Shown one piece after another: positions 46,109 to 63,596 of a stretch of 64,000 nt of DNA. The stretch covers positions 3,338 through 67,337 of the forward strand of contig CAYQCE010000009.1 in assembly GCA_964415885.1 (NCBI GenBank), given 5' to 3'. The notes beneath the pieces were generated by a model. The model did not search any database, was not told the origin of the DNA, and saw nothing but the letters and a program-made list of their open reading frames with translations. This DNA comes from an uncultured Ignavibacteria bacterium (lineage in GTDB: Bacteria; Zixibacteria; MSB-5A5; JAABVY01; JAHJOQ01). Position 1 is the first letter of the stretch; the number at the start of each line of letters is the position of its first letter. Both the position numbers and the translations under genes were made by a program.

Positions 46109-46133
46109 TTGCTCATCCGTTGTTGGTGAGATG

Positions 46134-47183: not shown

Positions 47184-48517
47184 TAAAGCCTGACCTTACC
47201 GTGCGTTTCTGCCGATTCGTCCGACATTCCCAGCCTGTTCTTAACAGACCACATAATGCGCCTGGCTGTTCCGACGAGAGACGGCATTGGGTCCCTTAAT
47301 GACAGATTCGCCTTCTTTGCGGTAATCCAGGATCCAATCCAACTGCTCACACTCAGTTTCCCGCTTTTTACCATCTCCAGCCCGGCGAAGAGATCATAGT
47401 ACGGATAGACAAGACCGTGTCCAGTACGATAGTTGCCGACTGTCTCGACATCCCGTTCGAGCGCATCCTGATACGCCATCAGCGCCACAGGCACACGGCA
47501 AATCTCTGCGAACCAGATGTACCACCACGGGCGAACATTGACCTCGAGCAGCTTGAACTCGTTGTCTCGCGGGTCAAGCTTGAATTCGGCGGAGAAAATG
47601 CCCCGGTAGCTGGTTTTCTCAAGAAGCATCATAAGCGAGTCGTGTGCGGCCTGCACCTCCGAGATCGGCACACTTACAACGAAAGAACTGTTGCCGAAGT
47701 CCGGCGGATACATTCTGAGCCTGTGACGCGCGAACGACGCGCGACAGACTCCATGCCGGTCGACGAAACCATCGATGAAATAGTGATTTGAGGCTGGTCC
47801 GGGAATGTACTCCTGATAGACCGCCTCCATTCCGAGAGAGCTGACTCGATTGTATTTGTCGAGGGCGTCTTCGTACGACTTCAGTCGAAACGCCTTCACT
47901 CTGAATGTCTTGAAGAACTTCTCTGAATCTGTTGGCTTGAGGAATGAGTTGGTTATCCGGTCTCTTGCCACCGCATCGAGGTCTGATTTCTCGGAGAGAA
48001 TCAGTGTGGAAGGATGTGGTATTCCGAGCGAGACCATGAGCTCGGCAAGACTGGCCTTGTCCATGAGCTGCTTTACTACGCTCTCCTCCGGGAGGCTGAA
48101 TCTGTAGTTTGATCGAAGTTCAGTCGGAAGGGCGGACAATGCCCGTGTCCAGCTATCGCTGCATGGCATGATCACGAGGCGTCTAAATGGAAGCGATTTC
48201 AGGTAGCCGGCGAGATCGCCGTCAGGACACGTTTCCTTTCTTTCGACCGGTACCCAGTTGAACCACCTTGAGGCACGGACGAAGCCGGACTGCCGTCCGG
48301 CTGCGTAGCATTTGATACCGTGTGATGCAAGAGACCGCATTACCCCGAGCGCTGTGATACCGGTACCCAGTATCAGAACCGGAGGATTTGTATCTTCCGA
48401 TTTGGCAGCCCCTGAACTATGTCCCAAGCTCGGATTCACGCAAGCCTCGTAACGCACCGAAGTGAAGTATCCGAAATGGATTGATGCCACAGACCGGACA
48501 GTGCTCAAGCATAGCAA
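47183..48517 (-). CDS. ATP-grasp family ligase (D-aspartate-ligase / PylC-like carboxylate-amine ligase); start codon uncertain
   Basis: Pre-ATP-grasp Gly-rich N-terminus (…PPVLILGTGITALGVMRSLASHGIKCYAA…), a central B-loop region and the C-terminal …EFKLLEVNVRPWWY… Mg/ATP motif. The TTG at 48517 is the longest-ORF start. An in-frame GTG/TTG roughly 20-25 codons downstream is equally plausible. Confidence 0.65.
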   Translation of the reverse strand: MLCLSTVRSVASIHFGYFTSVRYEACVNPSLGHSSGAAKSEDTNPPVLILGTGITALGVMRSLASHGIKCYAAGRQSGFVRASRWFNWVPVERKETCPDGDLAGYLKSLPFRRLVIMPCSDSWTRALSALPTELRSNYRFSLPEESVVKQLMDKASLAELMVSLGIPHPSTLILSEKSDLDAVARDRITNSFLKPTDSEKFFKTFRVKAFRLKSYEDALDKYNRVSSLGMEAVYQEYIPGPASNHYFIDGFVDRHGVCRASFARHRLRMYPPDFGNSSFVVSVPISEVQAAHDSLMMLLEKTSYRGIFSAEFKLDPRDNEFKLLEVNVRPWWYIWFAEICRVPVALMAYQDALERDVETVGNYRTGHGLVYPYYDLFAGLEMVKSGKLSVSSWIGSWITAKKANLSLRDPMPSLVGTARRIMWSVKNRLGMSDESAETHGKVRL

Positions 48518-49742: not shown

Positions 49743-50255
49743 ATGGCTGACACCAAAGAGGCGATCTCGAAAGGACTGCTGACCGCCATGAAGGCCGAGC
49801 GTGAAGGGCACAGCTTCTACATGATGGCTGCGAACGCGACGGACGATCCCAAGGGGAAAGAGGTGTTCGCGCAGCTCGCAAAGGATGAGCACGACCATTT
49901 GATCTACCTCAAGAACCAGTACGAGTCCCTGCAGAAGACCGGCAAGGTCGATCCAAGCCTGAAACTGGGTGAGAAAACCCGTTACGGCGGACCCGCGCCG
50001 ATCTTTTCGGAGAATTTCAAGAGCCGCATCAAGGATCGGCACTACGAAATGAGCGCGCTTTCGATCGGGATCCAGCTCGAACTGGATGCTATCAAGCATT
50101 ACAAGTCGCAGGCAGAGAGCTTTGATGATCCGACCGTAAAATCGTTCTACACGGATTTGGCCGACTGGGAGAAAGAGCACTATGACGCTCTCAACAATCA
50201 GTATGATTCATTGAAAGAGGATTACTGGTCAGATGCAGGTTTCAGTCCGTTCTAA
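49743..50255 (+). CDS. Ferritin-like diiron protein (rubrerythrin-family, no rubredoxin domain)
   Basis: Two ExxH-containing helix pairs (…AEREGHSFY…KDEHDHLIYL… and …LELDAIKHY…WEKEHYDAL…) are typical of the rubrerythrin/ferritin-like fold. Confidence 0.65.
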   Translation: MADTKEAISKGLLTAMKAEREGHSFYMMAANATDDPKGKEVFAQLAKDEHDHLIYLKNQYESLQKTGKVDPSLKLGEKTRYGGPAPIFSENFKSRIKDRHYEMSALSIGIQLELDAIKHYKSQAESFDDPTVKSFYTDLADWEKEHYDALNNQYDSLKEDYWSDAGFSPF

Positions 50256-50652
50256 CGATGCAGCAAAGACCGACCGGCCGCGCAGCGGGATGTGTCTCGT
50301 GGAGGGCTGTTGGAGGACCAAGCTGCGCCAGGCTCTATCGTAACTTCAGGAAGTGTGCGGTGTCCTGCGTCTTTAGGCTTGACGCAAGGCACTGAGAGTT
50401 CTGGCTCCTACAAAGACATTCGTTCCTTTTCCAACAAAGGTGTTCTGAACAAAGTGAACTATTCCGTGTTCAATTAACAATCAGATCGATTGCAGTGCCG
50501 GCTTTCAAGCGAAAGGACACAGTTTCACGTGATCGTCCGTACTGATCGAGATTACTGGCTGCGAATTACTGACTCTGCAGTCAGCATATTCCGGGACGGA
50601 CGCATCGCTACCCGGCTGAAAACAGGCCAGTGTCCGCTTGTTCGGAGAGGGT

Positions 50653-53400
50653 ATGATGTATATGATTGAGAAGAAGCATACCGACAAGTCACCCGAAGAT
50701 AACTGGCACTCTCTAGAAATAGAGACTATACTTGAGCAGCTGGAAACCAGCCCTGAAGGCCTAAGCGGGGAAGATGCTTCTGAGCGCCTGAGTACCCATG
50801 GGCCGAATACACTTCCGGCCAAGGAACCCCCTACCATTTGGGCCGTCCTGCTCAATCAGATCCTCAATCCGCTGATTTTCATCCTCTTGGCCGCTGCCGT
50901 GGCATCCCTGGCAATAGGCGAGCTTTCCGATGCCATCTTCATCCTGGCCGTCATCGTCCTAAACAGCGCGCTCGGTGCCTACCAGGAGTTCAATGCGGAG
51001 AAAAGCGCGGCCGCCCTCCAGCGAATCATGAAGTTATGGGCAAGAGTGCGGCGCGACAACAAGGAAGCCGAGATCGAGTCGAAAGAAGTGGTTCCCGGCG
51101 ATATCGTTCTGCTTGAGTCAGGCCGAAAAGTGCCCGCCGACCTCCGTTTGCTGCAGGCTCACGGACTTGCGGCCGACGAGAGCTTCCTGACCGGCGAATC
51201 CATGGCTGCTGAAAAACATACAGACCGTTTGCCTCAGGATACGGTCGTGAGCGACCGAAACAATATGGTCTTCGCCGGGTCGACGATCACTTCGGGTAGA
51301 GGTTCCGGGGTCGTTGTAGGCACCGGAACTCAGACTCAGGTTGGTATCATAGCTGAAAAAGTCTCTCATTCGGAAGGCGGCAAGCCTCCCCTCGTTTTGC
51401 GGATGGAGAAGTTCGTAAAGCAGATCAGTATCCTGATCCTCGTTATCAGCGCGGGACTGTCGCTGCTATTGGGATTACAGGGAGAGAGTGCCACCGCTAT
51501 TTTCTTCTTCGTGGTCGCTATGGCCGTCTCGGCTATCCCCGAGGGAATGCCGGTTGCTATGACAGTGGCTCTTTCGATTGCTACGAAACGTATGTCCGAG
51601 CGGAACGTGATCGTGCGCAGGCTAACAGCCGTGGAAAGCCTTGGAAGCTGTACCGTTATAGCCAGCGACAAGACCGGAACATTGACCGTCAATCAGCAGA
51701 CGGCGCGTATGATCATTCTCCCGGACGGGCAGACCTTTACAGCTTCAGGGGAGGGTTACAACGGCGAGGGGGAAGTCTCTGGCGGTGACAGTACCCGGTT
51801 GACTGAACCTGCACGGGAGCGGCTGGAAAGACTGGCCCAAATCGCAGTTCTGGCAAACGAGGCATCGCTGGTCAGGGAGGACGAAGAGTGGAGGCATAGG
51901 GGGGATGCGATGGATGTCGCATTCCTCGCATTTGCTTTTAAGCTCGGTCTGAATCCGGCGGAAGTGAGGGATCAGTTCAAAGTTGTGGATGAGATACCCT
52001 ACGAGTCGGAGCAGAAGTTCTCAGCGACTTTCTATGAAGATCGAGACACGCGGTACGTCGCCGCCAAGGGTGCGGTGGAGAGAATTCTGGACTTCTGCAC
52101 TCAGATGCACCAAGACGGAGACCTTGCAGACCTCGACAGAGAGGTCGTAGAGCGTCAGGAAACTGAAATGGCGGAGAAGGGATTGCGCGTCCTTGCTGTA
52201 GCCGGCGGGGAACTCTCCGCAACTGACGTCGATGAGGATTCAACAGGATCGGCATTATCCGGTCTCGTCTTGCACGGTCTCGTGGGATTCATCGACCCGC
52301 TTCGAGCGGAAGCGAGGGAGGCCGTTGAAAACTGCAGGAGAGCGGGCATCAAAGTCATGATGATTACGGGAGACCACCCCTCCACTGCCGGAGCTATCGC
52401 GGAAGAACTCTCTCTGTCAGACGGTAATGAGCCGGTTGTGACCGGCCATGATTTGAGTAAGGCCGGCAGTTCGGACAGCCCGGAATTCGAAGAGAAGGTA
52501 ATGTCGACACATGTGTTCGCACGGGTAGCACCCGCACAGAAGCTTGAGATTGTCGGGGTACTGATTCGAAATGGCGAGTTTGTTGCCGTGACCGGGGATG
52601 GCGTCAACGACGCTCCCGCACTTCGAAGAGCCAATATCGGAGTGGCGATGGGTTCCGGAACGGATGTGGCCAAGGAAGTCGGCTCGATGATCGTTACCGA
52701 TGACAATTTCGCCTCCATAGTCGCCGGTGTTGAGGAGGGACGATTCGCCTATGACAACGTGCGCAAAGTGATCTACCTGCTGATTTCCACCGGTGCTGCT
52801 GAGGTCCTGATGTTTATGGCGGCGATTATAACCGGCTTGAAGATTCCATTGGTGGCTGTCCAGCTCCTGTGGCTCAACCTTGTTACGAACGGAATTCAGG
52901 ATGTGGCACTCGCATTCGAGGGAGGAGAGCCAGGCGCTATGAAACGTAAACCTCGAAGACCTGATGAGAAAATCTTCGATTCACAGATGGTCAGTCAGAC
53001 AGCCGTCTCGGGCATGGTGATCGGGTCTTTGGCTTTTGGGTTCTGGTACTGGCTGATGGAGATTGAGAAAGTGGAGAGCCTGGCCTCAGCCCGTAACAGC
53101 GTCCTGCTCCTGATGGTACTGTTGCAGAACGTGCACGTCTTTAATTGCAGATCGGAGTCGGTATCCGCCTTCAGGGTTCCTATCAACCGCAATTATATAC
53201 TTCTATTTGGAGTGGTCATAGCGCAGGGTATCCATATTCTCAGCATGCGCCTACCGTTCATGCAGTCCATTCTTGGCGTGGAAACCGTCACGTTATCCCA
53301 GTGGTTTATCGCGCTGGGTCTGGCGCTAACAGTTCTGTTTGCAATGGAGATATTCAAATGGTTGGCCAGGCGCGGGCATTTACCAATCGAACCCAGGTGA
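50653..53400 (+). CDS. P-type cation-transporting ATPase (type II, Ca2+/Mg2+-ATPase-like)
   Basis: Contains DKTGTLT (phosphorylation site), TGES, …MITGDHPSTA…, …VAVTGDGVNDAPAL… and 10 predicted TM helices. Start is set at the first ATG after GGAGAGGG. The second or third ATG (50656/50662) is also possible. Confidence 0.9.
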   Translation: MMYMIEKKHTDKSPEDNWHSLEIETILEQLETSPEGLSGEDASERLSTHGPNTLPAKEPPTIWAVLLNQILNPLIFILLAAAVASLAIGELSDAIFILAVIVLNSALGAYQEFNAEKSAAALQRIMKLWARVRRDNKEAEIESKEVVPGDIVLLESGRKVPADLRLLQAHGLAADESFLTGESMAAEKHTDRLPQDTVVSDRNNMVFAGSTITSGRGSGVVVGTGTQTQVGIIAEKVSHSEGGKPPLVLRMEKFVKQISILILVISAGLSLLLGLQGESATAIFFFVVAMAVSAIPEGMPVAMTVALSIATKRMSERNVIVRRLTAVESLGSCTVIASDKTGTLTVNQQTARMIILPDGQTFTASGEGYNGEGEVSGGDSTRLTEPARERLERLAQIAVLANEASLVREDEEWRHRGDAMDVAFLAFAFKLGLNPAEVRDQFKVVDEIPYESEQKFSATFYEDRDTRYVAAKGAVERILDFCTQMHQDGDLADLDREVVERQETEMAEKGLRVLAVAGGELSATDVDEDSTGSALSGLVLHGLVGFIDPLRAEAREAVENCRRAGIKVMMITGDHPSTAGAIAEELSLSDGNEPVVTGHDLSKAGSSDSPEFEEKVMSTHVFARVAPAQKLEIVGVLIRNGEFVAVTGDGVNDAPALRRANIGVAMGSGTDVAKEVGSMIVTDDNFASIVAGVEEGRFAYDNVRKVIYLLISTGAAEVLMFMAAIITGLKIPLVAVQLLWLNLVTNGIQDVALAFEGGEPGAMKRKPRRPDEKIFDSQMVSQTAVSGMVIGSLAFGFWYWLMEIEKVESLASARNSVLLLMVLLQNVHVFNCRSESVSAFRVPINRNYILLFGVVIAQGIHILSMRLPFMQSILGVETVTLSQWFIALGLALTVLFAMEIFKWLARRGHLPIEPR

Positions 53401-53762
53401 AGGGATCGGCCATAAGCGAGATGCATACCCGACATCCGATTTCAGCACACTTACGGCCTTGGCATGTGGTCGGCCCGACCCGGGGCAAAGGACTTGTTGA
53501 GGAACCCGAGAAAATCTGTCACTGCGAGCGAGCATAGCGAGCGCGGCAATCTCAAACGTCGCCGTATTGTGTTGGCCGCCTCAATGATCGACACGTCGTA
53601 ATGCTTCCAGCGGAATTCCTCGCGATGATGCGTCTTCCAGCGGTACGGATCTTTTCAACAAGCCCCAATTCCACGGGGCACGAAGGGTTGGACACGTGAA
53701 GCGCAGTGCGTCAGCATCGCGCTTCACAATATCACAAACGATATGATGAGTGAGACAGGTTA

Positions 53763-54200
53763 TCAGCCTGCTTTGAGTTGCCTGGCCGCTTTAACAGGCT
53801 CGTATACGAGCGCCTTGGTCGGGCAGAAGTGCGCGCAGACAGGATCTCCCTTGCACAAGTCACACTTGACATACTTGTCGTGCTGTTTGTCATACAGAGT
53901 GCATCCGAACGGGCATGCCGCCTCGCATGCTCCGCATTTCACGCAGATATCCTGATGCAGTTCAATGGCTCCGGTGTCCGGATTCCTGCGGAGAGCATTC
54001 ACCAGGCATGACTTCACGCATGCGGCTTCTTCGCACTGGAGACACACGACCGGAGTCCACATCTCTTTGAATCCGCCATCGAGCGGGTAGATTCTGCTGC
54101 GGCCGGGCTTCCCATCCTCGGCGTGGGCGAAAGCGCAGGCGAGCTCGCACGTGCGGCATCCGATACAGAGATTCGGTTTCACAATCAAACGTGCATTCAT
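53763..54200 (-). CDS. Four-cluster [4Fe-4S] ferredoxin (HycB/HydN/DmsB-like electron-transfer subunit)
   Basis: Four Cys clusters: CIGCRTCELAC, CLQCEEAACVKSC, CVKCGACEAACP, CDLCKGDPVCAHFCP. The start overlaps the upstream gene's stop (ATGA). Confidence 0.8.
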   Translation of the reverse strand: MNARLIVKPNLCIGCRTCELACAFAHAEDGKPGRSRIYPLDGGFKEMWTPVVCLQCEEAACVKSCLVNALRRNPDTGAIELHQDICVKCGACEAACPFGCTLYDKQHDKYVKCDLCKGDPVCAHFCPTKALVYEPVKAARQLKAG

Positions 54201-54976
54201 TCCTCAACCACCTCTCTTTCCCACTGTGATATTCTGCCCATCGTGAGTGCGGTATCTTTCCTGCGACACTCATCGCAGACATCGAAGTAGTCTTCTCCGA
54301 GCCCGCGCATCTTGATCAGCGCCTCGGCGAATATCTTCGTAATCCCGAGTTTACCGCACTTCTCGCACTGAATCCGCTCGAACTGCTTGTCCCAGATTGT
54401 ACGGTAGATTCCTTCATCCTCATACGGGATTACGTTGGTCGGACAATTCAGCGAACAGGCGAGGCACCCCACACAGTCCGGCGGCGGCTCATTGAGTGGA
54501 GGAGCAACCTCTTTCAGATGTCCGCGCCCGACGGTGGAGATAGCTGCGAATCCCATCTCCTCGCAGATTCTCGTACAGAGCCCGCAGAGTATGCAGTTAT
54601 CGGAATCGACATATTCCTCATAGCTTGTCTGCGTGATGCCGTAATCTGCGGCGAGCTGTTGAATTTCCGGCGAGGTTGGGCAGCGCGCGAGCTGAAGATC
54701 GAGAACTGTCTTACGAAGCTCGTTCACCTTCTCAGTATGTGTCTGGACTATCAGGCCTTTCTCGACCGGATAGAGGCAGGAAGTGACATACTTCTTCCAG
54801 CCGTCCCAGCTCTCCTTCGTGATCTCTACCATGCAAAGTCTGCAGGCGCCAAACGGTTCGACTGCGCCGTGATCACAGAGCGCGGGGATATCGATTCCCT
54901 GCCGCCGGATAACCGCGAGCAGCAATTCACCTTCTTCGGCCTTACAGATTTTGCCATTTATCGTGATATTTACCAT
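54197..54976 (-). CDS. NuoG/HydA-N-terminal-like iron-sulfur protein ([2Fe-2S] + multiple [4Fe-4S]) lacking any catalytic domain
   Basis: Start at MVNITINGK (ATG 54976, AGGAG 7 nt upstream) with a 2Fe-2S ferredoxin fold (…ALCDHGAVEPFGACRLCMVEI…). Then …CILCGLCTRICEE…, …CVGCLACSLNCP… and …CEKCGK…CDEC…. The ORF-track start at 55045 would overlap the NuoF-like gene by 58 nt. Confidence 0.75.
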   Translation of the reverse strand: MVNITINGKICKAEEGELLLAVIRRQGIDIPALCDHGAVEPFGACRLCMVEITKESWDGWKKYVTSCLYPVEKGLIVQTHTEKVNELRKTVLDLQLARCPTSPEIQQLAADYGITQTSYEEYVDSDNCILCGLCTRICEEMGFAAISTVGRGHLKEVAPPLNEPPPDCVGCLACSLNCPTNVIPYEDEGIYRTIWDKQFERIQCEKCGKLGITKIFAEALIKMRGLGEDYFDVCDECRRKDTALTMGRISQWEREVVEE

Positions 54977-54986
54977 CAGCCAACTC

Positions 54987-56852
54987 CTACAGAACCTTGA
55001 TGGCGTTTCTCTGACAGACGGCATAACATGCGCCGCACTTGTCACAGAGCGATTTATCTATAGTATGCGGTTGTTTCTTCGCACCGGTAATGGCGTCATG
55101 CGGGCACACCCCAATACACGCCATGCAACCGTCACAAAGCGACTCATCGATCTCATATTCGATAAGTTCGCGGCAGACACCCGCGCAGCATTTTTTGTCG
55201 CGGATATGCTCGAGGTACTCATCCCGAAAATACATCACCGTGGACAAAAACGGATTCGGTCCTGACTTGCCGAGACCGCACAGCGATCCCATCACGATGT
55301 TGTCCGACAACCTGCCCATCAGCGCCAGATCCTCTTCGGTTGCGCGACCTTCGGAGACTTTGACCGCGAGGCCGTGAAGCTGATAGAGTCCCTCGCGACA
55401 CGGCACACACTTACCGCATGATTCGTCATTCAGGAAAGCGAGAAAGTACTTGGCGACATCCACCACGCACGTACGGTCATCCATCACAATCATTCCGCCG
55501 GAACCCATCATCGAGCCGGCCTTGGTCAGCGTATCGAAATCGACCGAGAGATCGAGCTTGTCAGCGGGTAGACATCCACCGGACGGTCCGCCGGTCTGTA
55601 CGGCCTTGAATGGCCGATCATCCTGGATTCCGCCGCCAATGTCATAGATGATCTCGCGCAGTGTTGTACCCATCGGTACTTCGATTAGCCCGCTGTTTCT
55701 GACCTTGCCGACGAGCGAGAAGGCCTTTGTGCCGGCGCTCGTGGAGGTACCTATCCTGGCGAACCAGTCGCCGCCTTTGTCGAGAATAACCGGTATGTTG
55801 GCGTAGCTCTCGACGTTGTTCAGCACAGTCGGTTTGTCGAAGAGTCCTTTCTGGACCGATCTAATATACTTGGCTCGCGGTTCGCCGACTTCACCCGCGA
55901 CCGATTTCATCAGTGCAGACGATTCGCCGCAAACGAACGCACCGCCGCCTCGGCTGATCTTGATTACGAAATGGAAATCGGTGCCGAATATCTTCGTCCC
56001 GAGGAAGCCGTACTCGGTCGCCTGCTCGATTGCCTTCTGGAGGTTTACCACAGCGAGCGGGTATTCCTCGCGAACATAGATGTATCCCTCATTAGCACCT
56101 ACGGCGTACGCGGCGATTATCATCCCCTCGATGACGGTGTGCGGGTCGCCTTCCATGATCACGCGATCCATGAAAGCTCCCGGGTCGCCCTCGTCACCGT
56201 TGCATATCACATAATGAGGCTGCTCTTCAAGTGTGGCGCAGCTCTCCCACTTGCGTCCGGTTGGGAACCCGCCACCGCCTCGGCCTCTGAGCCCGGATTT
56301 CTTGACCTGCTCAATCACCTGTTCGGGCTTCATTTTGGTAAGAACCTTCCCCAGGCCCTTGTAGCCGCCCGTGGCGATGTACTCATCGATATCGCACTGC
56401 TTTATCTTGCCAACGTTCCGAAGTGCGATGCGCGTTTGTTTCGCGTAGAACGGGATATCGGAGTACTTTTCTATTTTGTCACCGGTATTGGGGTCCTCGT
56501 AAAGAAGACGCTCGATAACTTCTTCGTTGCGTATAGACTTGTCGATAATCTCCTCGACGTCCTTCACCTTCACCTTGGTATAAAAAGTGCCGTCCGGCTC
56601 AATGACGACGAGCGGCCCCTGCTCACAGAAGCCGTGACATCCGGTCTCCTTCATTGCCTCGACCGAGAAGTTCTTGATGCGCTTGCTCTTCAGTCTCTTC
56701 TTGAATTCATCCGCGATCTTCTGCGCTCCGCTGGCCAGACAGCCCGGACCACAGCAGACGAGGACCTTGCGCGGGAACTTGTCGAGTCGAGCAATGCACT
56801 CTTTCCGGTGCTTTTCCAATTGCTGCGGACTTGTTATGCGCATATCTATCAA
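54987..56852 (-). CDS. NuoF-like NADH-binding flavoprotein (HydB/HndC-type: Trx-like 2Fe-2S + FMN/NADH + SLBB + 4Fe-4S + two extra ferredoxin clusters)
   Basis: N-terminal …VLVCCGPGCLASGA…, FMN site …GRGGGGFPTGRKWE…, the NuoF 4Fe-4S motif …CGKCVPCREG… and C-terminal …CDGCMACIGVCPHDAI…CDKCGACYAVC…. Confidence 0.9.
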   Translation of the reverse strand: MIDMRITSPQQLEKHRKECIARLDKFPRKVLVCCGPGCLASGAQKIADEFKKRLKSKRIKNFSVEAMKETGCHGFCEQGPLVVIEPDGTFYTKVKVKDVEEIIDKSIRNEEVIERLLYEDPNTGDKIEKYSDIPFYAKQTRIALRNVGKIKQCDIDEYIATGGYKGLGKVLTKMKPEQVIEQVKKSGLRGRGGGGFPTGRKWESCATLEEQPHYVICNGDEGDPGAFMDRVIMEGDPHTVIEGMIIAAYAVGANEGYIYVREEYPLAVVNLQKAIEQATEYGFLGTKIFGTDFHFVIKISRGGGAFVCGESSALMKSVAGEVGEPRAKYIRSVQKGLFDKPTVLNNVESYANIPVILDKGGDWFARIGTSTSAGTKAFSLVGKVRNSGLIEVPMGTTLREIIYDIGGGIQDDRPFKAVQTGGPSGGCLPADKLDLSVDFDTLTKAGSMMGSGGMIVMDDRTCVVDVAKYFLAFLNDESCGKCVPCREGLYQLHGLAVKVSEGRATEEDLALMGRLSDNIVMGSLCGLGKSGPNPFLSTVMYFRDEYLEHIRDKKCCAGVCRELIEYEIDESLCDGCMACIGVCPHDAITGAKKQPHTIDKSLCDKCGACYAVCQRNAIKVL

Positions 56853-56857
56853 CTCTC

Positions 56858-57307
56858 CTACTTGACCAGCTTTTTGCAGTTGCCGACGGTAATGTGTCCG
56901 TGGAAATCCTCATTGACCGCGACAACCGGGGCCATCGCACAGGCTCCGACGCAGGCCACAGTTTCGAGCGTGAATTTGCCGTCTTCGGTCGTATTGCCCG
57001 CCTTTACCCCGAGTTCGTTTTCGAGGCGCTCCAGAACTATCTGCGCGCCTCTAATGTGGCAGGTCGTACCCATGCAGATACGGATCACTTTGTCTCCACG
57101 GGGGATCAGGCTGAATGCGTTATAAAACGTCGATACCGAATATACCTTCGACAGAGGAACATCGAGATGTTCCGATGTCTTTCGCATCGCCTCATCCGGC
57201 AGGTATTTGAATTCCTTCTGTATGTCCTGGAGCACCGCAATCAATGACTGCGATGTCTTTGGATAGCGTTCGAATATCTCCGGTAGTTTATCAAGATCAA
57301 CCTTCAT
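56858..57307 (-). CDS. NuoE-like thioredoxin-fold [2Fe-2S] ferredoxin (HydC/HndA-type)
   Basis: …CMGTTCHIRGA…ETVACVGACAMAPV… carries the four conserved Cys of the NuoE family. 5-nt gap to the NuoF-like gene. Confidence 0.85.
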   Translation of the reverse strand: MKVDLDKLPEIFERYPKTSQSLIAVLQDIQKEFKYLPDEAMRKTSEHLDVPLSKVYSVSTFYNAFSLIPRGDKVIRICMGTTCHIRGAQIVLERLENELGVKAGNTTEDGKFTLETVACVGACAMAPVVAVNEDFHGHITVGNCKKLVK

Positions 57308-57870
57308 GCCTTGACCTTCTTCTTTCCTATATGTTCTTGCGCGAGCTTTACGCCCTCGTCGAGTGCTTTGAAGTTTATCTCGAGCACGTCCGCCTTACGG
57401 GCGAGCTTCTCCTTGATGGTGTCCTTGACCGTTTGGTATTTCACGACTCCGGTTGCGCCGATGAATGCGCCGAGTATGGCGATGTTGGCCGCTTTGGCGT
57501 TGCCTGCGTTCAGCGCTATCTCATTCGCAGGGACGAGGATTTCGGTGATGTCGTCTCGATCGCTTGTGACATCGATGAGCGATGAATTGACTATCGCGAG
57601 TCCGCCCGCCTTGATCTTCGGGAGGAATTTGTCGAATGACGGGCGGTTGAACACGCATGCGCCTTTTGGATTGCTGATGATCGGCGAACCGATTCGCTTG
57701 TCGGAAACGACGACCGTGCAGTACGCTGTGCCTCCGCGCATCTCGGGACCGTACGACGGGATCCAGACTACCTGCTTCTCTTCGGCAATGCCCGCGTAGG
57801 CGAGAAGCTGTCCGGCGGTGAGGATACCCTGACCGCCGAATCCGGCGAATGTGACCTCATACTGTTCCAT
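57304..57870 (-). CDS. 2-oxoacid:ferredoxin oxidoreductase gamma subunit
   Basis: …[13 protein letters not shown]…[12 protein letters not shown]… is a typical PorG/KorC. ATGA overlap with the downstream nuoE-like gene. Confidence 0.85.
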
Positions 57871-58642
57871 TGTCTATCCTCCCAATATCCGGGTCCTTGA
57901 AACAGCCAAGCGGATAGTAAGGCGACATATTCTCCTGCAGCCACTTCGTGGCCTCGCGTGGAGATAGTCCCCAGTTCGTCGGGCATGTCGAGAGCACTTC
58001 GATCAGCGTGAAGCACTTGCCCTGCTCCTGATACTCGAATGCCTTTTTGATGGCACGTTTGGCTTTGACCACGTTCCGGGGGGTGTGAACCGCAACTCTC
58101 TCGAGATATGCCGGGGTCTGAAGCGCAGCGAGCAGCTCGACCATCTTGATCGGCTGACCCGTCAAAGCTGTGTCACGTCCCATTGGACAGGTTGTTGTAA
58201 TCTGATCCTGAAGTGTCGTCGGCGCCATCTGTCCGCCCGTCATGCCGTAGATTGCGTTGTTCACGAAAATCGTGGTGAATTTCTCGCCGCGATTTGCGGC
58301 GTGAATAATCTCCGCCATCCCGATCGATGCTAGGTCACCGTCGCCCTGGTACGTAAAGACTATCATGTCAGGGCGAAGTCTCTTGAAACCGGTCGCGAGA
58401 GCCGGCGCTCTGCCATGAGGCGCCTCGAGAAAATCACAGTTGAAGTAATTGTAACAGAGAACAGAGCACCCGACGGGTGCGACTCCGCATGTCTTTTCGC
58501 GAAGGTTGAGCTCATCGAGTGCCTCCGCAACGAGACGATGTATCACGCCGTGCGTGCAGCCGGGGCAATAGTGGGTTACGACGTCTCTAAGAGCCTCCGG
58601 CCGTTCAAATATCTTCTGTTCCGGCCTGAATGTTTCAGCCAT
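57857..58642 (-). CDS. 2-oxoacid:ferredoxin oxidoreductase beta subunit (ThDP-binding)
   Basis: …[10 protein letters not shown]…, …GDGD…NN…YGMTGGQ… ThDP motif, and the C-terminal Cys for the proximal cluster. Confidence 0.9.
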
Positions 58643-58650
58643 GGCTCCCC

Positions 58651-59817
58651 CTAACCTTTCTTCTTCGACTTAGACTTCGCGGTGGATTTTCGGGAAGTCT
58701 TTTTTGTCGATTTTTTTGCAGTTGTCTTGGCTTTTCCCGACTTGCCACCGGTCGTCTGCCTTGAGTATTTCAGGACCTGCTCGATGATCTCCTCCGGAGA
58801 CGGCACAATGCCTCCGGTCCGACCGTAGAAGTGAACCGGCTTCGCACCGAGTATCGCTCGCTCGACGTCTTCCATCATCTGAGCAGTGCTCATCTCGACC
58901 GTCAACACGTTCTTAATGTTAGACTTCGCGGCTTCCTTTTCGATCTGCTTTGCGGGGAATGGGAAGAGCGATATCGGCCGGAATAGACCGACGGAAACTC
59001 CCTGTCTGTCGAGTTCGTCGATTGCGGTCTGGCAGATTCGAGCCATGGTTCCGTATGCCACTAACAACAGGTCGTTCTTTTTTGAAATCTTGTAATTCTC
59101 GTAACGTACCTCGTCCTTCTCCATCTGCTTGTATTTCCTGTCAAGGACCCAGGAATTTTCTTCAAGCTGTGTTGGATCGAGAAAGAGAGATTTGATAATG
59201 TACGGGTCGCGTCCCTCGCAGCCATCTGCTGCCCATTCTTTCGCGGGAAGCTCGGGCTCTTCGTATTTTTCCGGGAATTCCACCGGCTCCATCATCTGAC
59301 CGATCATGCCGTCGCCGATCATCATGACCGGATTGCGGTACTTGTCGGCGAGATGGAACGAGAGCATCATGAGATCCACGGCTTCCTGGATGCTCGACGG
59401 TGCGAGAACCAGGAGCCTGTAGTCGCCGTGACCACCGCCCTTGACCGACTGGTAGTAATCCGACTGTGCGGGAAGAATTCCACCGAGGCCGGGACCGCCA
59501 CGCATGATATTGACAATCACACACGGCAACTGTGCGCCGGCCATGTAGGAGATCGCCTCCTGCATCAACGATATTCCGGGGCTCGAGGATGTCGTGAAAA
59601 CGCGCTTTCCGGTTGAGGCCGCGCCGAAGAGCATGTTTGCCACGGCCAGCTCCGACTCACCCTGCAGGAAGACACCACCGACCTCCGGGATACGTTTCGA
59701 CAGATACTCGGCGACCTCGGTCTGCGGCGTAATAGGATAGCAGAAGTAGTTGTTTGCACCCGCACGCAGAGCAGCTTCCGCAATCGCCTCGTTACCTTTC
59801 ATCAATATTCGTGCCAT
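58651..59817 (-). CDS. 2-oxoacid:ferredoxin oxidoreductase alpha subunit with Lys-rich C-terminal tail
   Basis: [20 protein letters not shown]…[10 protein letters not shown]… is the PorA/KorA N-terminus. The last ~35 aa (…[34 protein letters not shown]) form a histone-H1-like K/T/S-rich tail. Confidence 0.9.
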
Positions 59818-59843
59818 ATAGATATTTCCTGTTATGCGTCAGC

Positions 59844-60077
59844 TTAGTATTCGAAGAGGCTGAACTGCAGCCCGTTCGTGTGCACATCAATTGCTACATC
59901 GGGGCAGACCAAAGCACATATTCGGCAGCCGATGCAGCGCGAAGGATCGTGAACCTGAGCGTAGAAATACCCGCGAACGGTGATGTCTTTCGACATCGAG
60001 AGTATCTCCATCGGGCATGCCTGCACACAGAGCTCGCAACCCTTACAGTGATTCTTGTCTATTGTTACTCTGGGCAT
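59844..60077 (-). CDS. 2-oxoacid:ferredoxin oxidoreductase delta subunit (2x[4Fe-4S] ferredoxin)
   Basis: 77 aa with CKGCELCVQACP and CIGCRICALVCP. Confidence 0.8.
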   Translation of the reverse strand: MPRVTIDKNHCKGCELCVQACPMEILSMSKDITVRGYFYAQVHDPSRCIGCRICALVCPDVAIDVHTNGLQFSLFEY

Positions 60078-60096
60078 AAATCCCCTCGATATATGT

Positions 60097-60834
60097 TTAT
60101 TGTTTGCCGGCTTTCGATTCTCTCTCCCACGGCTTGAGCAGCATTCGCTCGAGAGGAAGAACCGGAAGCCCGTCTGTATTTACGTCGCTCTTGTCGAGAA
60201 TCGCTTTGAGCGCACTGACAAATACGATGGGCAGCCCGGATTCGCGGGAGACCTCCCGCGCGAGCTTGATCCCATCCTGGACTACGGTCGCGTCGGTAAA
60301 TTCCATCATATGGCTGTTTGAAATCAGGCCGGTGAATGTCAGTCGTGACGCACGCTCGATACCGTTCAACATTTTTACACTGCTCGTCATGTCCCTGGTG
60401 AATGGCCGGTTGGCGTTCAGGACGAGAAACATGTCATAATCCACGCCATCGTCAAACGCGTCGGAGAGGGAGGACAGCACTCTCGCACCCACATCATCTC
60501 CACCGACGTCCAGTATGGTCTTACCCTGATGACCTTCTATCGCCCCTTTGACTTGCGGAAGTATGATCGGGAGATCGGCGTATTCGTGCGCGCCCTCGGG
60601 CACTATTGCCTCGATGCCGTACTCAGCGAGAGCCTTGCGTGCTTCGCGTGATCTGAAGTACGGGTTGACGATATCGAGATCCACGATCACAACAGGCTGA
60701 TCCTGAGATTCCGCGACGTGACGAGACAGATTGACAGCAACTTCGGATTTACCACTACCGTAACCGCCGACGATTATAATGATGTCTTTGGAGAAAGAGG
60801 GAAGGTCCCGCTGTTTAGACACTCTGCGCATCAT
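60097..60834 (-). CDS. P-loop NTPase of unknown function (Walker A GGYGSGKS), first gene of the oxidoreductase operon
   Basis: …IIIIVGGYGSGKSEVAVNL… Walker A, plus …VIVDLDIVNPYF… and hhhhD (…MFLVLNAN…) Walker-B-like segments. No closer family assignment possible by eye. Confidence 0.55.
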   Translation of the reverse strand: MMRRVSKQRDLPSFSKDIIIIVGGYGSGKSEVAVNLSRHVAESQDQPVVIVDLDIVNPYFRSREARKALAEYGIEAIVPEGAHEYADLPIILPQVKGAIEGHQGKTILDVGGDDVGARVLSSLSDAFDDGVDYDMFLVLNANRPFTRDMTSSVKMLNGIERASRLTFTGLISNSHMMEFTDATVVQDGIKLAREVSRESGLPIVFVSALKAILDKSDVNTDGLPVLPLERMLLKPWERESKAGKQ

Positions 60835-61121
60835 CTCCCGTCATCCCCGGAGCCGCAGAAAGTGAAGCCCCGAATTCGCATTTATGCCTCGTCAGCACAT
60901 CCGATCCCGCATCGATCGATTGCACCCCGATGACAATTCATAATATATACGAAACGAATCTCCGCAGAGTCAAGCGGATTGGCAAAAAATGGATTGTAAC
61001 ATAATAGGTTGACACCCACTGGTACCTCCGCTATATTCATTCTCTGATTCATCTCTGTAATACGATTATGTGTATTGAGTTATGACATTTAAGCATCTGT
61101 TTGAACCGTCAGGAGAGGGAA

Positions 61122-61949
61122 ATGGATAGAATCGGGAGAAAAAACACCGTGCAGTATATGGCGATTATTCTCGCTTCGCTCCTTGCGCTCTGCTTTGTCG
61201 GGGGTTGCGATAGCGGCACCGAGGATGAAGCCGCGAAGGGTGAGCGGACCTCGTCAGCCGATATTGGCCGGGAGTACTATGCGGATTGGTTGAAACACAG
61301 ATCCAAGTATTTCGAGATCAGATACGCTCCGAACGAGGAACTTCACTCGCGAATTCAGGCGATTGGTGAGAAGATGGATGAGGTAATCCTCTTCAACTCC
61401 ATGGTGCTCCGGACAAAGGCGCCGGACAGCCTGTTCGTGATGCTGTTCGAGAACAAGACCGAGGGGAATAGAGTGACCGGCAGGCTACTGCCTTTCTTCT
61501 CCAATGACACGATATATTATGAGGTCATGTCGCCGATTGGGCTGGCCGTATCCGACTATATGCTGCACAAGGCGGCGGGGGACTCGATACGCTACAAGTT
61601 CATCGAGGAGGGGTATCCCGCGTTGCTCGACTTTTCAGGCTTCAACTATCACGAGATGGCGCAGGAGTATTTCGATCGCGAAGAGGGGTATACCGCGATG
61701 CAGCTCGTCGACAACAAAATATACAACAGCATGATGCGCGGTCCTCGCCGTACTTTGGCAGCGTCTTTCATTGCCTACTTGACCTACAATTACGGTTCCG
61801 CTCCGATAGTCGGCCTGCTTCGCCAGGAGGGAACTGCAGAAGATATCCTGCAACTGGCCACCAGGAAGTCGATACCGGAGTTGCACGCCGGCTGGGAGAG
61901 AGATCTCCCGGCTCTGGCAGAAATCAAGAGTAACGAGGCGCAACCATGA
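61122..61949 (+). CDS. Hypothetical lipoprotein
   Basis: ATG after AGGAGAGGG. N-terminus MDRIGRKNTVQYMAIILASLLALCFVGGC (signal plus lipobox-like Cys). No recognised domain. Confidence 0.55.
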   Translation: MDRIGRKNTVQYMAIILASLLALCFVGGCDSGTEDEAAKGERTSSADIGREYYADWLKHRSKYFEIRYAPNEELHSRIQAIGEKMDEVILFNSMVLRTKAPDSLFVMLFENKTEGNRVTGRLLPFFSNDTIYYEVMSPIGLAVSDYMLHKAAGDSIRYKFIEEGYPALLDFSGFNYHEMAQEYFDREEGYTAMQLVDNKIYNSMMRGPRRTLAASFIAYLTYNYGSAPIVGLLRQEGTAEDILQLATRKSIPELHAGWERDLPALAEIKSNEAQP

Positions 61950-62713
61950 GCGATAACAGCAAGTGGAAAACAAGCATAACCGCCATCGGCCCCGGCAGGA
62001 TTGAGGTCCGCGGATACCCTATCGAGCAGTTGATGGAGAAGAAGAGCTTTGCCGAGACGGTCTATCTCGTTCTCAAGGGCGACTTGCCGTCGGAAGCCGA
62101 GGCCGAGATGTTCGAAGCTATTCTCGTTTCGTCCGTAGATCATGGCATCTCTCCGCCATCGGTTCTCGGTGCCCGGAACAGCGTGTCGGCGGGGAATCAA
62201 CTGAATGCCGCCGTTGCTGCGGGAATACTCTCGATCGGCGATGTCCACGGTGGTGCAATCGAACAGGCGGCGCGCATTATGCAGGAGGTCGCCGAGAAGG
62301 ACGGTCCCCCCGAGGCTCTCGCGGCCGAGCTCGTCGATGACCTTGCGTCGCGCAAGAAAAGAATGCCCGGATTCGGTCATCGCCTGCACAAGACGGATCC
62401 CCGGACATTGAAAATGTTCGAGAAGGCTGACAGGCTCGGTTTCGGCGGCAGACATTTGGCGCTCTGCAAGGCTATTGAGGTTGCTCTCGAGAACAAGACC
62501 GGAAAGAAGCTTCCTATAAATGTCGACGGCGCGATTGCAGCGGTTATCTCCGATATGGGTTTCGACTGGAAGCTCGGCAAGGGCTTCTTTATTCTCAGCC
62601 GTACGGTTGGCCTGATAGCACACGTTTATGAGGAATGGACGACACAGCGTCCCATGCGCAAACTCGGTGACACCAACGCCGAGTATGTTGGCCCCGATCG
62701 CAGAGATGTATGA
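61946..62713 (+). CDS. Short citrate-synthase-family protein (citryl-CoA lyase-like, about 255 aa)
   Basis: Retains the citrate synthase catalytic segments (…GDVHGGAIE…, …PGFGHRLHKTDPR…, …NVDGAIAAV…) but lacks the large N-terminal domain of full-length citrate synthase. ATGA overlap with the upstream gene. Confidence 0.7.
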   Translation: MSDNSKWKTSITAIGPGRIEVRGYPIEQLMEKKSFAETVYLVLKGDLPSEAEAEMFEAILVSSVDHGISPPSVLGARNSVSAGNQLNAAVAAGILSIGDVHGGAIEQAARIMQEVAEKDGPPEALAAELVDDLASRKKRMPGFGHRLHKTDPRTLKMFEKADRLGFGGRHLALCKAIEVALENKTGKKLPINVDGAIAAVISDMGFDWKLGKGFFILSRTVGLIAHVYEEWTTQRPMRKLGDTNAEYVGPDRRDV

Positions 62714-62753: not shown

Positions 62754-63596
62754 TTGAGACGATTTCGAAGGCTGTTAAAGGGTGTTATCTGCGCAGTTCT
62801 GCCTGTCCTGATTGTGGCGTTGTCATGCGGTCCCGCTCCAAAAGAAGAGCCGGAGCGAGTGCGGATTCCGGTGCCCTCTGATTTGACTGCGGTGGTCGGG
62901 CACGAGCAGGTCGAACTGCGGTGGACGACAAACCGTGGCGATGCCTTAATACAGGGATACAATATCTATATCGATGAGTCGCCGGTCGTCGGGCCGGATG
63001 GCGCGGTTGTATTGCCTGATGAGGAGACGTTTCACGCGGATGTCTACCCGGGTGACCTCGATCCCGCCACGGAATTCGAGACATTCGAGGCTCGCAAGCT
63101 TCGCGATGGAGTTAAGTACTACGCTGCGGTGACTATCATGATGGCGAGCGGAATCGAGGGGCCTCCCTCCAATATGATAGAGTTCGTGTGTCATCCGCAC
63201 GGTGAGATTTCGCTCGGCACGAGCTTCAGCGGCGAAAGAGAGGGGTTCTCATTCGAGCGTGCGGAGTTTGTCAATACCGATGCCGCCGCCAATCAGATAT
63301 ATTTCACGCAGATCAATGGCGAGGACTACCTGGCGTCTCCGGGCCGAATTGATGACATATTGCAGACTGTGCGATTCTATCCCTTGAATATCAACTCTAT
63401 AGGTGATCGATTCGATCCTCCGAGTGGGACCGGTTCGGACAAGATTCGTGTGGTGGAGGGCGGCAGCTATCTGCTTCGCACGTCTGACAACAAACATGCC
63501 AAGATAATCGTAACCGGATTCACAGGGAGCGGAGACGATCGTATGATTCGATTCGCCTACAGCTACATGCCAAAGCCCGGTTACACCAACTTCTGA
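62754..63596 (+). CDS. Hypothetical lipoprotein with fibronectin-III-like N-terminal domain
   Basis: TTG start 9 nt after AGGAG. N-terminus RRFRRLLKGVICAVLPVLIVALSCG (lipobox). …PSDLTAVVGHEQVELRWTTN… is FN3-like. Confidence 0.5.
   Translation: MRRFRRLLKGVICAVLPVLIVALSCGPAPKEEPERVRIPVPSDLTAVVGHEQVELRWTTNRGDALIQGYNIYIDESPVVGPDGAVVLPDEETFHADVYPGDLDPATEFETFEARKLRDGVKYYAAVTIMMASGIEGPPSNMIEFVCHPHGEISLGTSFSGEREGFSFERAEFVNTDAAANQIYFTQINGEDYLASPGRIDDILQTVRFYPLNINSIGDRFDPPSGTGSDKIRVVEGGSYLLRTSDNKHAKIIVTGFTGSGDDRMIRFAYSYMPKPGYTNF

Follow-up and report, generated by a model that had tools for sequence, protein, structure and literature searches.

An OFOR-Bfu operon of Zixibacteria as a candidate complex coupling 2-oxoacid oxidation to NAD+ and ferredoxin

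We analyzed a 64-kb window of DNA from an uncultured bacterium placed in the Zixibacteria (contig CAYQCE010000009.1 of GenBank assembly GCA_964415885.1; the window is the whole stretch that was analyzed, and all positions below refer to it). Nine minus-strand open reading frames (ORFs) at 53763 to 60834 form an operon encoding a four-subunit 2-oxoacid:ferredoxin oxidoreductase (OFOR), three proteins of the electron-bifurcating Bfu family, a polyferredoxin, and a P-loop NTPase. The locus raises the question of what the Bfu proteins do beside an OFOR. The short NuoG-like subunit, BfuA, lacks a catalytic domain and would be without function unless a partner supplied electrons; the OFOR is the sole candidate among the encoded proteins. 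Judging from sequence and synteny, we propose that the OFOR, the polyferredoxin, and BfuABC form one complex that couples 2-oxoacid oxidation to the joint reduction of NAD+ and ferredoxin, and we put the probability of this at roughly 0.6. An earlier interpretation of the same DNA, here called the sequence-only reading, had suggested that flavin-based bifurcation couples the OFOR to NAD(H) and ferredoxin. This idea is well supported by the sequence evidence, although its novelty did not hold: Schut et al. (2022; PMC9304861), who defined the Bfu family, had already predicted a "Por-Bfu (A-G)" in Dehalococcoides mccartyi and syntrophic Proteobacteria.

Gene content and cofactor sites of the operon

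From first to last, the nine genes are as follows (lengths in amino acids [aa]).

60097..60834, minus strand: SIMIBI-class P-loop NTPase, 245 aa, the first operon gene (weak P-loop match, sub-threshold families only)
59844..60077, minus strand: OFOR delta, 77 aa, 2x[4Fe-4S] (Fer4 domains; best NCBIfam match OorD, 2-oxoglutarate oxidoreductase [OGOR] delta)
58651..59817, minus strand: OFOR alpha, 388 aa, with a Lys-rich C-terminal tail (POR_N and PFOR_II; YPITP motif)
57857..58642, minus strand: OFOR beta, 261 aa, thiamine pyrophosphate (TPP) and one [4Fe-4S] (TPP_enzyme_C; GDG-X25-NN)
57304..57870, minus strand: OFOR gamma, 188 aa (Pfam POR domain, 4.6e-39)
56858..57307, minus strand: BfuC (NuoE/HydC-like), 149 aa, [2Fe-2S] cluster C1 (2Fe-2S_thioredx, 1.8e-49)
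54987..56843, minus strand: BfuB (NuoF/HydB-like), 618 aa, with predicted sites for flavin mononucleotide (FMN)/NAD(H), B1, B3, B4, B5, and B2/Zn (Complex1_51K and NADH_4Fe-4S)
54197..54976, minus strand: BfuA (WorA-type), 259 aa, with predicted A1 [2Fe-2S] and A2 and A4 [4Fe-4S] (Fer2_4 and 2x[4Fe-4S])
53763..54200, minus strand: polyferredoxin (WorS/AorA homolog), 145 aa, 4x[4Fe-4S] (16 Cys; PDB matches)

All nine ORFs lie where the sequence-only reading had placed them. Pfam and NCBIfam scans of the products matched the domain content it had described, including a HydB-type NuoF-like protein with extra clusters; the scans placed a [2Fe-2S] domain at the N terminus of this protein and a 2x[4Fe-4S] domain at its C terminus. 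The tight packing it had claimed was also found after start refinement, which set the BfuB start at the ATG at 56843 and the BfuA start at the ATG at 54976: from the NTPase to the polyferredoxin, the junctions measured +19, +26, +8, -14, -4 (ATGA), +14, +10, and -4 (ATGA) nucleotides (nt). Gamma overlaps beta by 14 nt, and gamma and BfuC meet in the first ATGA. With junctions of -14 to +26 nt and ATGA overlaps, the genes of the operon are translationally coupled. Purine-rich stretches of the GGAG/GAGG type stand directly 5' of most starts, and an independent gene caller, applied to the same sequence in a second assembly, likewise predicted the last three products to be 618, 259, and 145 aa long.

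Ligand conservation was assessed in 53 to 84 homologs per subunit (14 for delta) drawn from related loci. The predicted cluster ligands were all conserved across the subunits, which gives about 15 Fe-S clusters per protomer set in addition to FMN and TPP.

Judged by its sequence, BfuB has all the traits by which bifurcating Bfu enzymes differ from simple NADH dehydrogenase modules. Its best match in the PDB was WorB (9mqx_B, 750 bits). Bifurcating HydB of T. kivui (8a6t_B, 737 bits) and A. woodii (7q4v_B, 709.5 bits) and subunit B of NiFe-Bfu (7t2r_B, 707.7 bits) also aligned, like WorB, over the full length, while plain NuoF/Nqo1 proteins reached only the core (residues ~140 to 550; ~365 bits). 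In a comparison with WorB, which was solved with NAD bound (PMC12318220), BfuB showed conserved FMN/NAD(H) motifs: GRGGGGFPTG, NGDEGDPGAFMDR, and GGGAFVCGESSAL, of which NGDEGDPGAFMDR is identical in the two proteins. The sequence-only reading had named the absence of NAD(H)-binding motifs from the Nuo-like proteins as something that would speak against it; BfuB keeps these motifs as well as all Bfu-specific cluster sites. With ligand equivalences taken from Supplementary Fig. 9 of Schut et al. (2022), the sites are B5 (C30/C35/C69/C73 in the 618-aa numbering, conserved, in an N-terminal 2Fe-2S_thioredx domain at residues 29 to 105 of the 621-aa ORF as scanned), B1 (C476/C479/C482/C522, 99 to 100% conserved), B2/Zn (C459, H546, C552, and C557, all 100% conserved), and B3/B4 (C570/573/576/580 and C600/603/606/610, conserved). 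Conservation of the N-terminal [2Fe-2S] domain, the C-terminal 2x[4Fe-4S] domain, and the B2/Zn His ranged from 93 to 100%, and non-bifurcating homologs lack B5, B3/B4, and the His and Cys of the B2 site (Schut et al. 2022; PMC9304861). In BfuC, the four ligands C78, C83, C119, and C123 are 100% conserved and provide the cluster C1 that is expected of a Bfu member. A query for the Dehalococcoides Por-Bfu locus, made with the BfuB fragment printed in the same supplementary figure, returned only fragments of ~70% identity.

Database searches also returned proteins of ~165 to 175 aa (P0143, P0175, P0197, P0225, P0239, and similar ones) that correspond to the C-terminal part of BfuB only (NADH_4Fe-4S and 2x Fer4). 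Because some of them lie on contigs of 16 to 37 kb, they are not all truncated genes and may represent C-terminal modules of BfuB that stand alone or have been split off.

What the sequence-only reading had called a truncated NuoG without a catalytic domain is a complete protein, BfuA, with more than 1,140 homologs in the database at E<1e-5. Its length is constant (249 to 262 aa in 120/120 best matches), and its family profile aligned with WorA (9mqx_A, 247 aa; E 5.7e-57) over residues 3 to 244, including the C-terminal CxxC...CxxC that binds Zn in WorA (PMC12318220). Since the length is conserved and the alignment with WorA runs from end to end, BfuA is not a pseudogene, and the same two observations rule out a frameshifted hydrogenase or formate dehydrogenase. 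The protein ends at residue 259, with no A5/H-cluster domain and no catalytic domain in the Pfam and NCBIfam scans; the OFOR is the sole catalytic partner in the operon, as the sequence-only reading had held. Invariant Cys occur in three cluster motifs only (34/45/48/67, 128-138, and 168-178). The His-ligated A3 motif, H-x3-C-x2-C-x5-C, is absent: the corresponding region reads LARCPTSPE, and its Cys is 37% conserved. By these motifs, BfuA is of Type 2 in the classification of Schut et al. (2022), with A1, A2, and A4. Twenty-two residues follow the second CxxC, the invariant R239 and W252 among them, and an AlphaFold2 (AF2) model predicts, with low confidence, a helix at 235 to 250.

The best PDB matches of the polyferredoxin were AorA (8c0z_C, 107 bits) and then WorS (9mqx_E, 96 bits; residues 4 to 139), and all of its 16 Cys are 100% conserved. 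The best NCBIfam match was the N-terminal domain of PadI, of phenylglyoxylate dehydrogenase (86 bits). WorS and AorA are the electron wires of tungsten-dependent aldehyde oxidoreductases, and their C-terminal residues mediate head-to-tail polymerization. Beyond the aligned region, the polyferredoxin continues for 6 residues, compared with ~15 in WorS and ~25 in AorA. Because of this early end, we assume neither a nanowire nor the 1:3 "plug and wire" stoichiometry. In 9mqx, the C-terminal helix of WorA recruits WorS, and the WorS cluster S4 lies 10.7 Å from the WorA cluster A4 (PMC12318220). By analogy, we propose the polyferredoxin as the wire that would lead from OFOR delta to BfuA.

The hallmarks of a four-subunit OFOR are complete: beta has the GDG-X25-NN motif for TPP and a [4Fe-4S] site (C26, C29, C59, and C220, 100% conserved), alpha the YPITP motif, gamma its domain, and delta two [4Fe-4S] sites (eight cluster Cys, 100% conserved). 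Alpha scored 525 bits against the NCBIfam "VorB" subfamily model NF005507 (cut-off 399) and only weakly against pyruvate models (PorA_Arch, 111 bits with a cut-off of 550; PFOR, 33 bits). Its nearest PDB entries were 1yd7, 8ys5 (2-oxoglutarate synthase alpha), and 6n2n (OGOR). On these scores, the OFOR appears VorB/Kor-like rather than Por-like, with pyruvate, 2-oxoglutarate, and branched-chain 2-oxoacids as candidate substrates. Beta, gamma, and delta scored below every NCBIfam equivalog cut-off, and we therefore left the substrate unassigned. With VorCBA-type and Oor/Kor-type OFORs, the operon shares the delta-alpha-beta-gamma order, the score of alpha above the VorB cut-off, the OorD-like delta, and the 2-oxoglutarate-type structures nearest to alpha.

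The C terminus of alpha (58651 to 58755; residues ~354 to 388) is a basic tail rich in Lys, Ser, and Thr. Such tails of 10 to 45 aa are found on most Zixibacterial Bfu-linked alphas (median 12 aa, 6 K/R) and are missing from Bfu-less relatives (median 1 aa). Three distant Bfu-linked loci (L087, L106, and L112) also have alphas without a basic tail, so that the tail is probably a lineage trait.

Conservation of the gene order

We searched one genome per GTDB species with a BfuA profile and recovered 80 loci. Nearly all came from metagenome-assembled genomes (MAGs) of Zixibacteria, some labelled Ignavibacteriales, GN15, or FCB, with one from Calditrichaeota and one from Acidoferrum. The sequence-only reading had proposed to look for the same OFOR-NuoEF order in other genomes, and the order was found: 51 of the 80 loci have the identical nine genes, 28 are contiguous subsets ended by contig ends, and one misses only a match to beta. 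A differing arrangement was seen in none of the 80. The nine-gene arrangement is conserved far beyond chance.

Three BfuA paralogs in Zixibacteria bin1124 (L013, L029, and L076) were considered and not accepted, as two of them are fragments that cannot be counted. The "chromosome" of this bin, CP070824.1, which contains L013 and L029, consists of contigs of 1 to 2.5 kb joined by 100-N spacers. Loci on such short contigs within a concatenation are not interpretable.

A scan of metagenomes with a profile of distant NTPase relatives added 80 further loci, in which the NTPase always lies directly upstream of delta-alpha-beta-gamma or delta-beta-gamma-alpha. Whenever BfuC-BfuB-BfuA is present (about 11 loci), it follows directly after gamma, and the polyferredoxin comes next after BfuA in 9 of the 10 metagenome loci that show BfuA. 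No polyferredoxin without Bfu was seen in these loci, so that the polyferredoxin belongs to the junction of OFOR and Bfu, as would be expected of a connector subunit. At least 17 loci with sufficient downstream sequence have the NTPase-OFOR five-gene module without Bfu. Wherever a BfuA of the operon's family was seen on a locus of sufficient length, it was located after this OFOR. This co-inheritance, together with the ATGA overlap of gamma and BfuC, supports the view of the sequence-only reading that the OFOR and Nuo-like genes are one unit.

In 13 of the Bfu-less metagenome loci (among them L114, L123, L127, L137, L140, L144, L145, L147, L149, L152, L154, and L155), a class I/II aminotransferase gene comes directly after OFOR gamma, and cmk and rpsA come next. 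The adjacency is a hint that enzymes of this OFOR clade act on 2-oxoacids derived from amino acids, although the cmk-rpsA context may be mere housekeeping synteny.

The NTPase belongs to the OFOR and not to Bfu, since it is always directly ahead of the OFOR genes, with or without Bfu. In this, the clade of the operon's OFOR differs from VorCBA-, Oor-, and Kor-type enzymes; to our knowledge, a SIMIBI NTPase gene ahead of an OFOR has not been described for characterized OFOR operons. The NTPase family comprised 5,786 proteins at E<1e-3 in a word-indexed search and 2,125 clusters at 50% identity in an exhaustive one, 289 of them below 1e-30, and no curated model describes it. Its fold is of the SIMIBI class, equally near SRP/FtsY/FlhF and Get3/Mrp/MinD. 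The Walker A motif reads VGGYGSGKS, without the signature Lys of the deviant KGGxGK[ST], and the protein has no Cys. A place in the MinD/ParA/Mrp branch was rejected, because the signature Lys and the CxxC expected for Mrp/NBP35 are both lacking. The name given by NCBI, "cobalamin biosynthesis protein CbiA," rests on a sub-threshold domain match and is a mis-annotation. Because many SIMIBI proteins insert metal centers or assemble complexes, the NTPase is most likely an assembly or cofactor-insertion factor for its OFOR clade. Three members of the family (P0396, P0439, and P0481) are fusions of ~670 aa with N-terminal Mur-ligase middle and C-terminal domains, which suggests that some branches work with ATP-dependent amide-bond ligases instead of OFORs.

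Proposed electron path and alternative explanations

We infer that the OFOR, the polyferredoxin, and BfuABC associate physically, and that the complex would run in the oxidative direction with obligate coupling of its two acceptors. The TPP-dependent OFOR (alpha/beta/gamma/delta) would oxidatively decarboxylate a 2-oxoacid to acyl-CoA and CO2, and electrons would leave through the [4Fe-4S] cluster of beta and the two clusters of delta. From delta they would pass to the four clusters of the WorS/AorA-like polyferredoxin and on through A4, A2, and A1 of BfuA and B1 of BfuB to FMN. There, as in other Bfu enzymes, they would be split, with a hydride going to NAD+ and two single low-potential electrons going through C1 of BfuC and B3/B4 of BfuB to ferredoxin (Fd). 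The net reaction, reversible in principle, would be 2 RCOCOO- + 2 CoA + NAD+ + 2 Fd(ox) -> 2 RCO-SCoA + 2 CO2 + NADH + 2 Fd(red).

Comparison with solved complexes is consistent with this wiring. WorABCSL of Acetomicrobium mobile (9mqx; PMC12318220) contains the best solved homologs of BfuB and BfuA and the second-best of the polyferredoxin, and the same connection is seen in it: a WorS-type 4x[4Fe-4S] subunit lies next to a WorA-type BfuA, and the path would run alike from the catalytic module through this subunit to A4 of BfuA and the BfuBC core. It differs in its catalytic subunit, the tungstopterin protein WorL instead of a TPP-dependent OFOR (no WOR-family gene was found in the operon or its flanks), in the polyferredoxin, which in the operon ends ~9 residues earlier, in the nanowire-stacking region, and in lacking the extra NTPase gene. 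AorABC of Aromatoleum aromaticum (8c0z) and PadEFGHI of Azoarcus/Aromatoleum contain AorA and PadI, the top PDB and NCBIfam matches of the polyferredoxin. PadEFGHI is an OFOR-family phenylglyoxylate:NAD+ oxidoreductase that passes electrons to NAD+. The PadI match can be taken as a precedent for an NAD-linked OFOR-family enzyme with the same ferredoxin fold. Both systems have a simple, non-bifurcating FAD subunit (AorC, PadH) where the operon has a full BfuABC, and PadI combines the ferredoxin domain with beta in one polypeptide, whereas the operon encodes this domain as a separate gene after BfuA.

The published Por-Bfu resembles the operon in combining four OFOR subunit genes and BfuABC in one cluster, in a Type 2 BfuA (without A3 or A5), and in a proposed reaction between 2-oxoacid, ferredoxin, and NAD(H). 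For Por-Bfu, Schut et al. (2022; PMC9304861) suggested that pyruvate is made from NADH and ferredoxin or is oxidized only with joint reduction of NAD+ and ferredoxin. According to its published description, it consists of seven subunits without a WorS homolog, and in its BfuA the Zn finger is present but the C-terminal helix is missing (PMC12318220). The operon has nine genes, adding a WorS/AorA-like polyferredoxin and a SIMIBI NTPase. Its BfuA has a conserved tail after the Zn finger with the predicted helix, its OFOR appears VorB/Kor-like, and its hosts are Zixibacteria and relatives, where those of Por-Bfu are Chloroflexi or Proteobacteria. Because of the WorS/AorA homolog, the BfuA tail, and the NTPase, we treat the operon as a variant of Por-Bfu that departs from the published type. 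When the first genome of Zixibacteria was published, ferredoxin-dependent OFORs were annotated in it and no Bfu link was noted (PMC3903129).

Several observations weigh against a single bifurcating complex. In the literature searched, Por-Bfu occurs in two papers only (PMC9304861 and PMC12318220), as a prediction in both, and no biochemical, structural, or transcript evidence for any OFOR-Bfu was found. Either acceptor could be reduced singly by oxidation of a 2-oxoacid (~-500 mV), and it is not evident why bifurcation would be needed. At its C terminus, the polyferredoxin is ~10 to 20 residues short in the part through which WorS and AorA polymerize, so that the analogy to Wor may be a partial one. 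The AF2 model of BfuA is poor (pLDDT 67), and the Zn-finger Cys of BfuA are only 59 to 81% conserved and are lost in ~40% of relatives. Finally, the synteny comes mostly from one phylum and may partly reflect shared ancestry.

In one alternative explanation, the complex might reduce NAD+ without bifurcation, with BfuABC as an NADH-forming diaphorase like HoxFU or PadH/AorC and no role for ferredoxin. In AorABC and PadEFGHI, a WorS-like polyferredoxin does connect the catalytic subunit with a simple flavoprotein that reduces NAD, and the reaction would be exergonic without coupling. We consider this unlikely: the N-terminal [2Fe-2S], C-terminal 2x[4Fe-4S], and B2/Zn His that BfuB retains are missing in characterized non-bifurcating homologs (Schut et al. 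2022; PMC9304861), and Wor-Bfu, which is the nearest relative with a known structure, requires NAD+ and ferredoxin together although each of its half-reactions is exergonic. The operon might also encode two enzymes on one transcript, a ferredoxin-dependent OFOR with its NTPase and a BfuABC-polyferredoxin unit that serves another donor encoded elsewhere or simply equilibrates NADH and ferredoxin. The Bfu-less NTPase-OFOR modules indicate that the OFOR functions alone, and modular clusters can mean co-regulation instead of a complex. Yet every BfuA of the family in a long enough locus follows this OFOR, gamma and BfuC overlap, and the polyferredoxin appears only where Bfu is attached to the OFOR. 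Moreover, neither BfuA nor the polyferredoxin has a catalytic site, and the other conserved neighbors (citryl-CoA lyase, lipoproteins, and partner-switching regulators) include no further donor. On this evidence, two separate enzymes seem rather improbable.

Alternatively, the same complex could run in reverse, with NADH and reduced ferredoxin confurcated to carboxylate acyl-CoA to pyruvate or 2-oxoglutarate, perhaps together with the citryl-CoA lyase encoded divergently from the operon (61946 to 62713, plus strand). For Por-Bfu, formation of pyruvate with NADH and ferredoxin has been proposed (Schut et al. 2022; PMC9304861). The lyase is bona fide (NF004869, 303 bits with a cut-off of 212; PDB 6hxp, 237 bits), neighbors 39 of the 51 complete OFOR-Bfu loci, and is still adjacent after rearrangement in L050, L060 to L062, and L079. 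The linkage is, however, absent from the more distant Bfu-linked loci of the metagenome scan, and no citryl-CoA synthetase was found near the lyase, which is flanked by lipoprotein genes. RBG-1 Zixibacteria were judged non-autotrophic (PMC3903129). Energetically, NADH (~-280 mV) and ferredoxin (~-500 mV) average ~-400 mV against ~-500 mV for carboxylation (potentials from Table 1 of Schut et al. 2022; PMC9304861). Confurcation would hinder synthesis, because the ~-400 mV mix is less reducing than ferredoxin alone. Net synthesis by the complex is for these reasons an improbable reading. A fuller version, in which the reverse complex would carboxylate acetyl- or succinyl-CoA and, together with the lyase, would give Zixibacteria an unrecognized route of the reductive tricarboxylic acid cycle type for CO2 assimilation or anaplerosis, with the NTPase as dedicated assembly factor of the OFOR clade, we regard as very unlikely. 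Oxidation by a single OFOR-polyferredoxin-BfuABC complex with joint reduction of NAD+ and ferredoxin is the reading that we retain.

Flanking regions, neighboring genes, and significance

Two features may mark the limits of the operon.

53696..53727, minus strand: stem-loop ~36 nt past the last stop codon, with no U-tract (-29 kcal/mol, z -2.57 against shuffles)
60835..61100, no strand assigned: divergent AT-rich intergenic region of 266 nt, 5' of the NTPase gene, the presumed promoter site by its position

The stem-loop may be the end of the operon; a scan for consensus terminators did not detect it. In the intergenic region, no sigma-70-like match above chance was found for a minus-strand promoter, and the sole strong match (11/12) faces the divergent plus-strand gene. 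An Rfam scan of this 266-nt leader gave no match and no riboswitch.

On the plus strand beyond the intergenic region, the citryl-CoA lyase gene overlaps by 4 nt an upstream lipoprotein gene without a family (61101 to 61949). Another lipoprotein gene, with a weak fn3 match, comes after the lyase gene (62754 to 63596). These two genes were considered as a citryl-CoA synthetase and rejected: both products have lipoprotein signal peptides, and neither belongs to a Pfam or NCBIfam family apart from the weak fn3 match. Other conserved neighbors in related genomes were STAS, anti-sigma kinase, SpoIIE, NUDIX, Omp85, histidine kinase, and sigma-54 regulator genes, which are metabolically uninformative.

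Immediately downstream of the operon and convergent with it (49743 to 53400, plus strand) are a rubrerythrin-like gene (170 aa) and a gene for a 920-aa P-type cation ATPase. In other Zixibacteria, STAS, anti-sigma kinase, and SpoIIE partner-switching genes occupy this position. Further away (44384 to 48517, minus strand), the gene for an acetolactate-synthase-like TPP enzyme of 574 aa, which scored below every equivalog cut-off, adjoins two others, for a GNAT-domain protein (349 aa) and for a 444-aa protein with only faint ATP-grasp-like matches; the trio may form a small cluster for biosynthesis. The window also contains a very large ORF of 1,864 aa (38494 to 44088, plus strand).

Bfu is the least understood class of flavin-based electron bifurcation. 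The members purified or solved so far are of the hydrogenase, Nfn, and tungsten-aldehyde types only, and the OFOR-linked member was predicted in 2022. Judged by sequence, what the operon adds to Por-Bfu is the WorS/AorA-like ninth gene, the dedicated NTPase, a VorB/Kor-like OFOR, and another taxonomic home. It is strictly conserved in at least 51 species-level genomes, mostly of Zixibacteria, which are abundant in sediments and aquifers. As a by-product for annotation, the SIMIBI NTPase now named CbiA emerges as the universal companion of a whole OFOR clade. The operon is a well-defined target for biochemistry and cryo-electron microscopy, not a surprise, and it offers a testable wiring plan that borrows the WorS/AorA "wire" subunit. 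Oxidation of 2-oxoacids is a central step in anaerobic carbon and amino-acid metabolism. If the proposed coupling is true, this step would yield NADH and reduced ferredoxin at a fixed ratio of 1:2 without Rnf or Nfn, and models of redox balance and energy yield for the host organisms would change.

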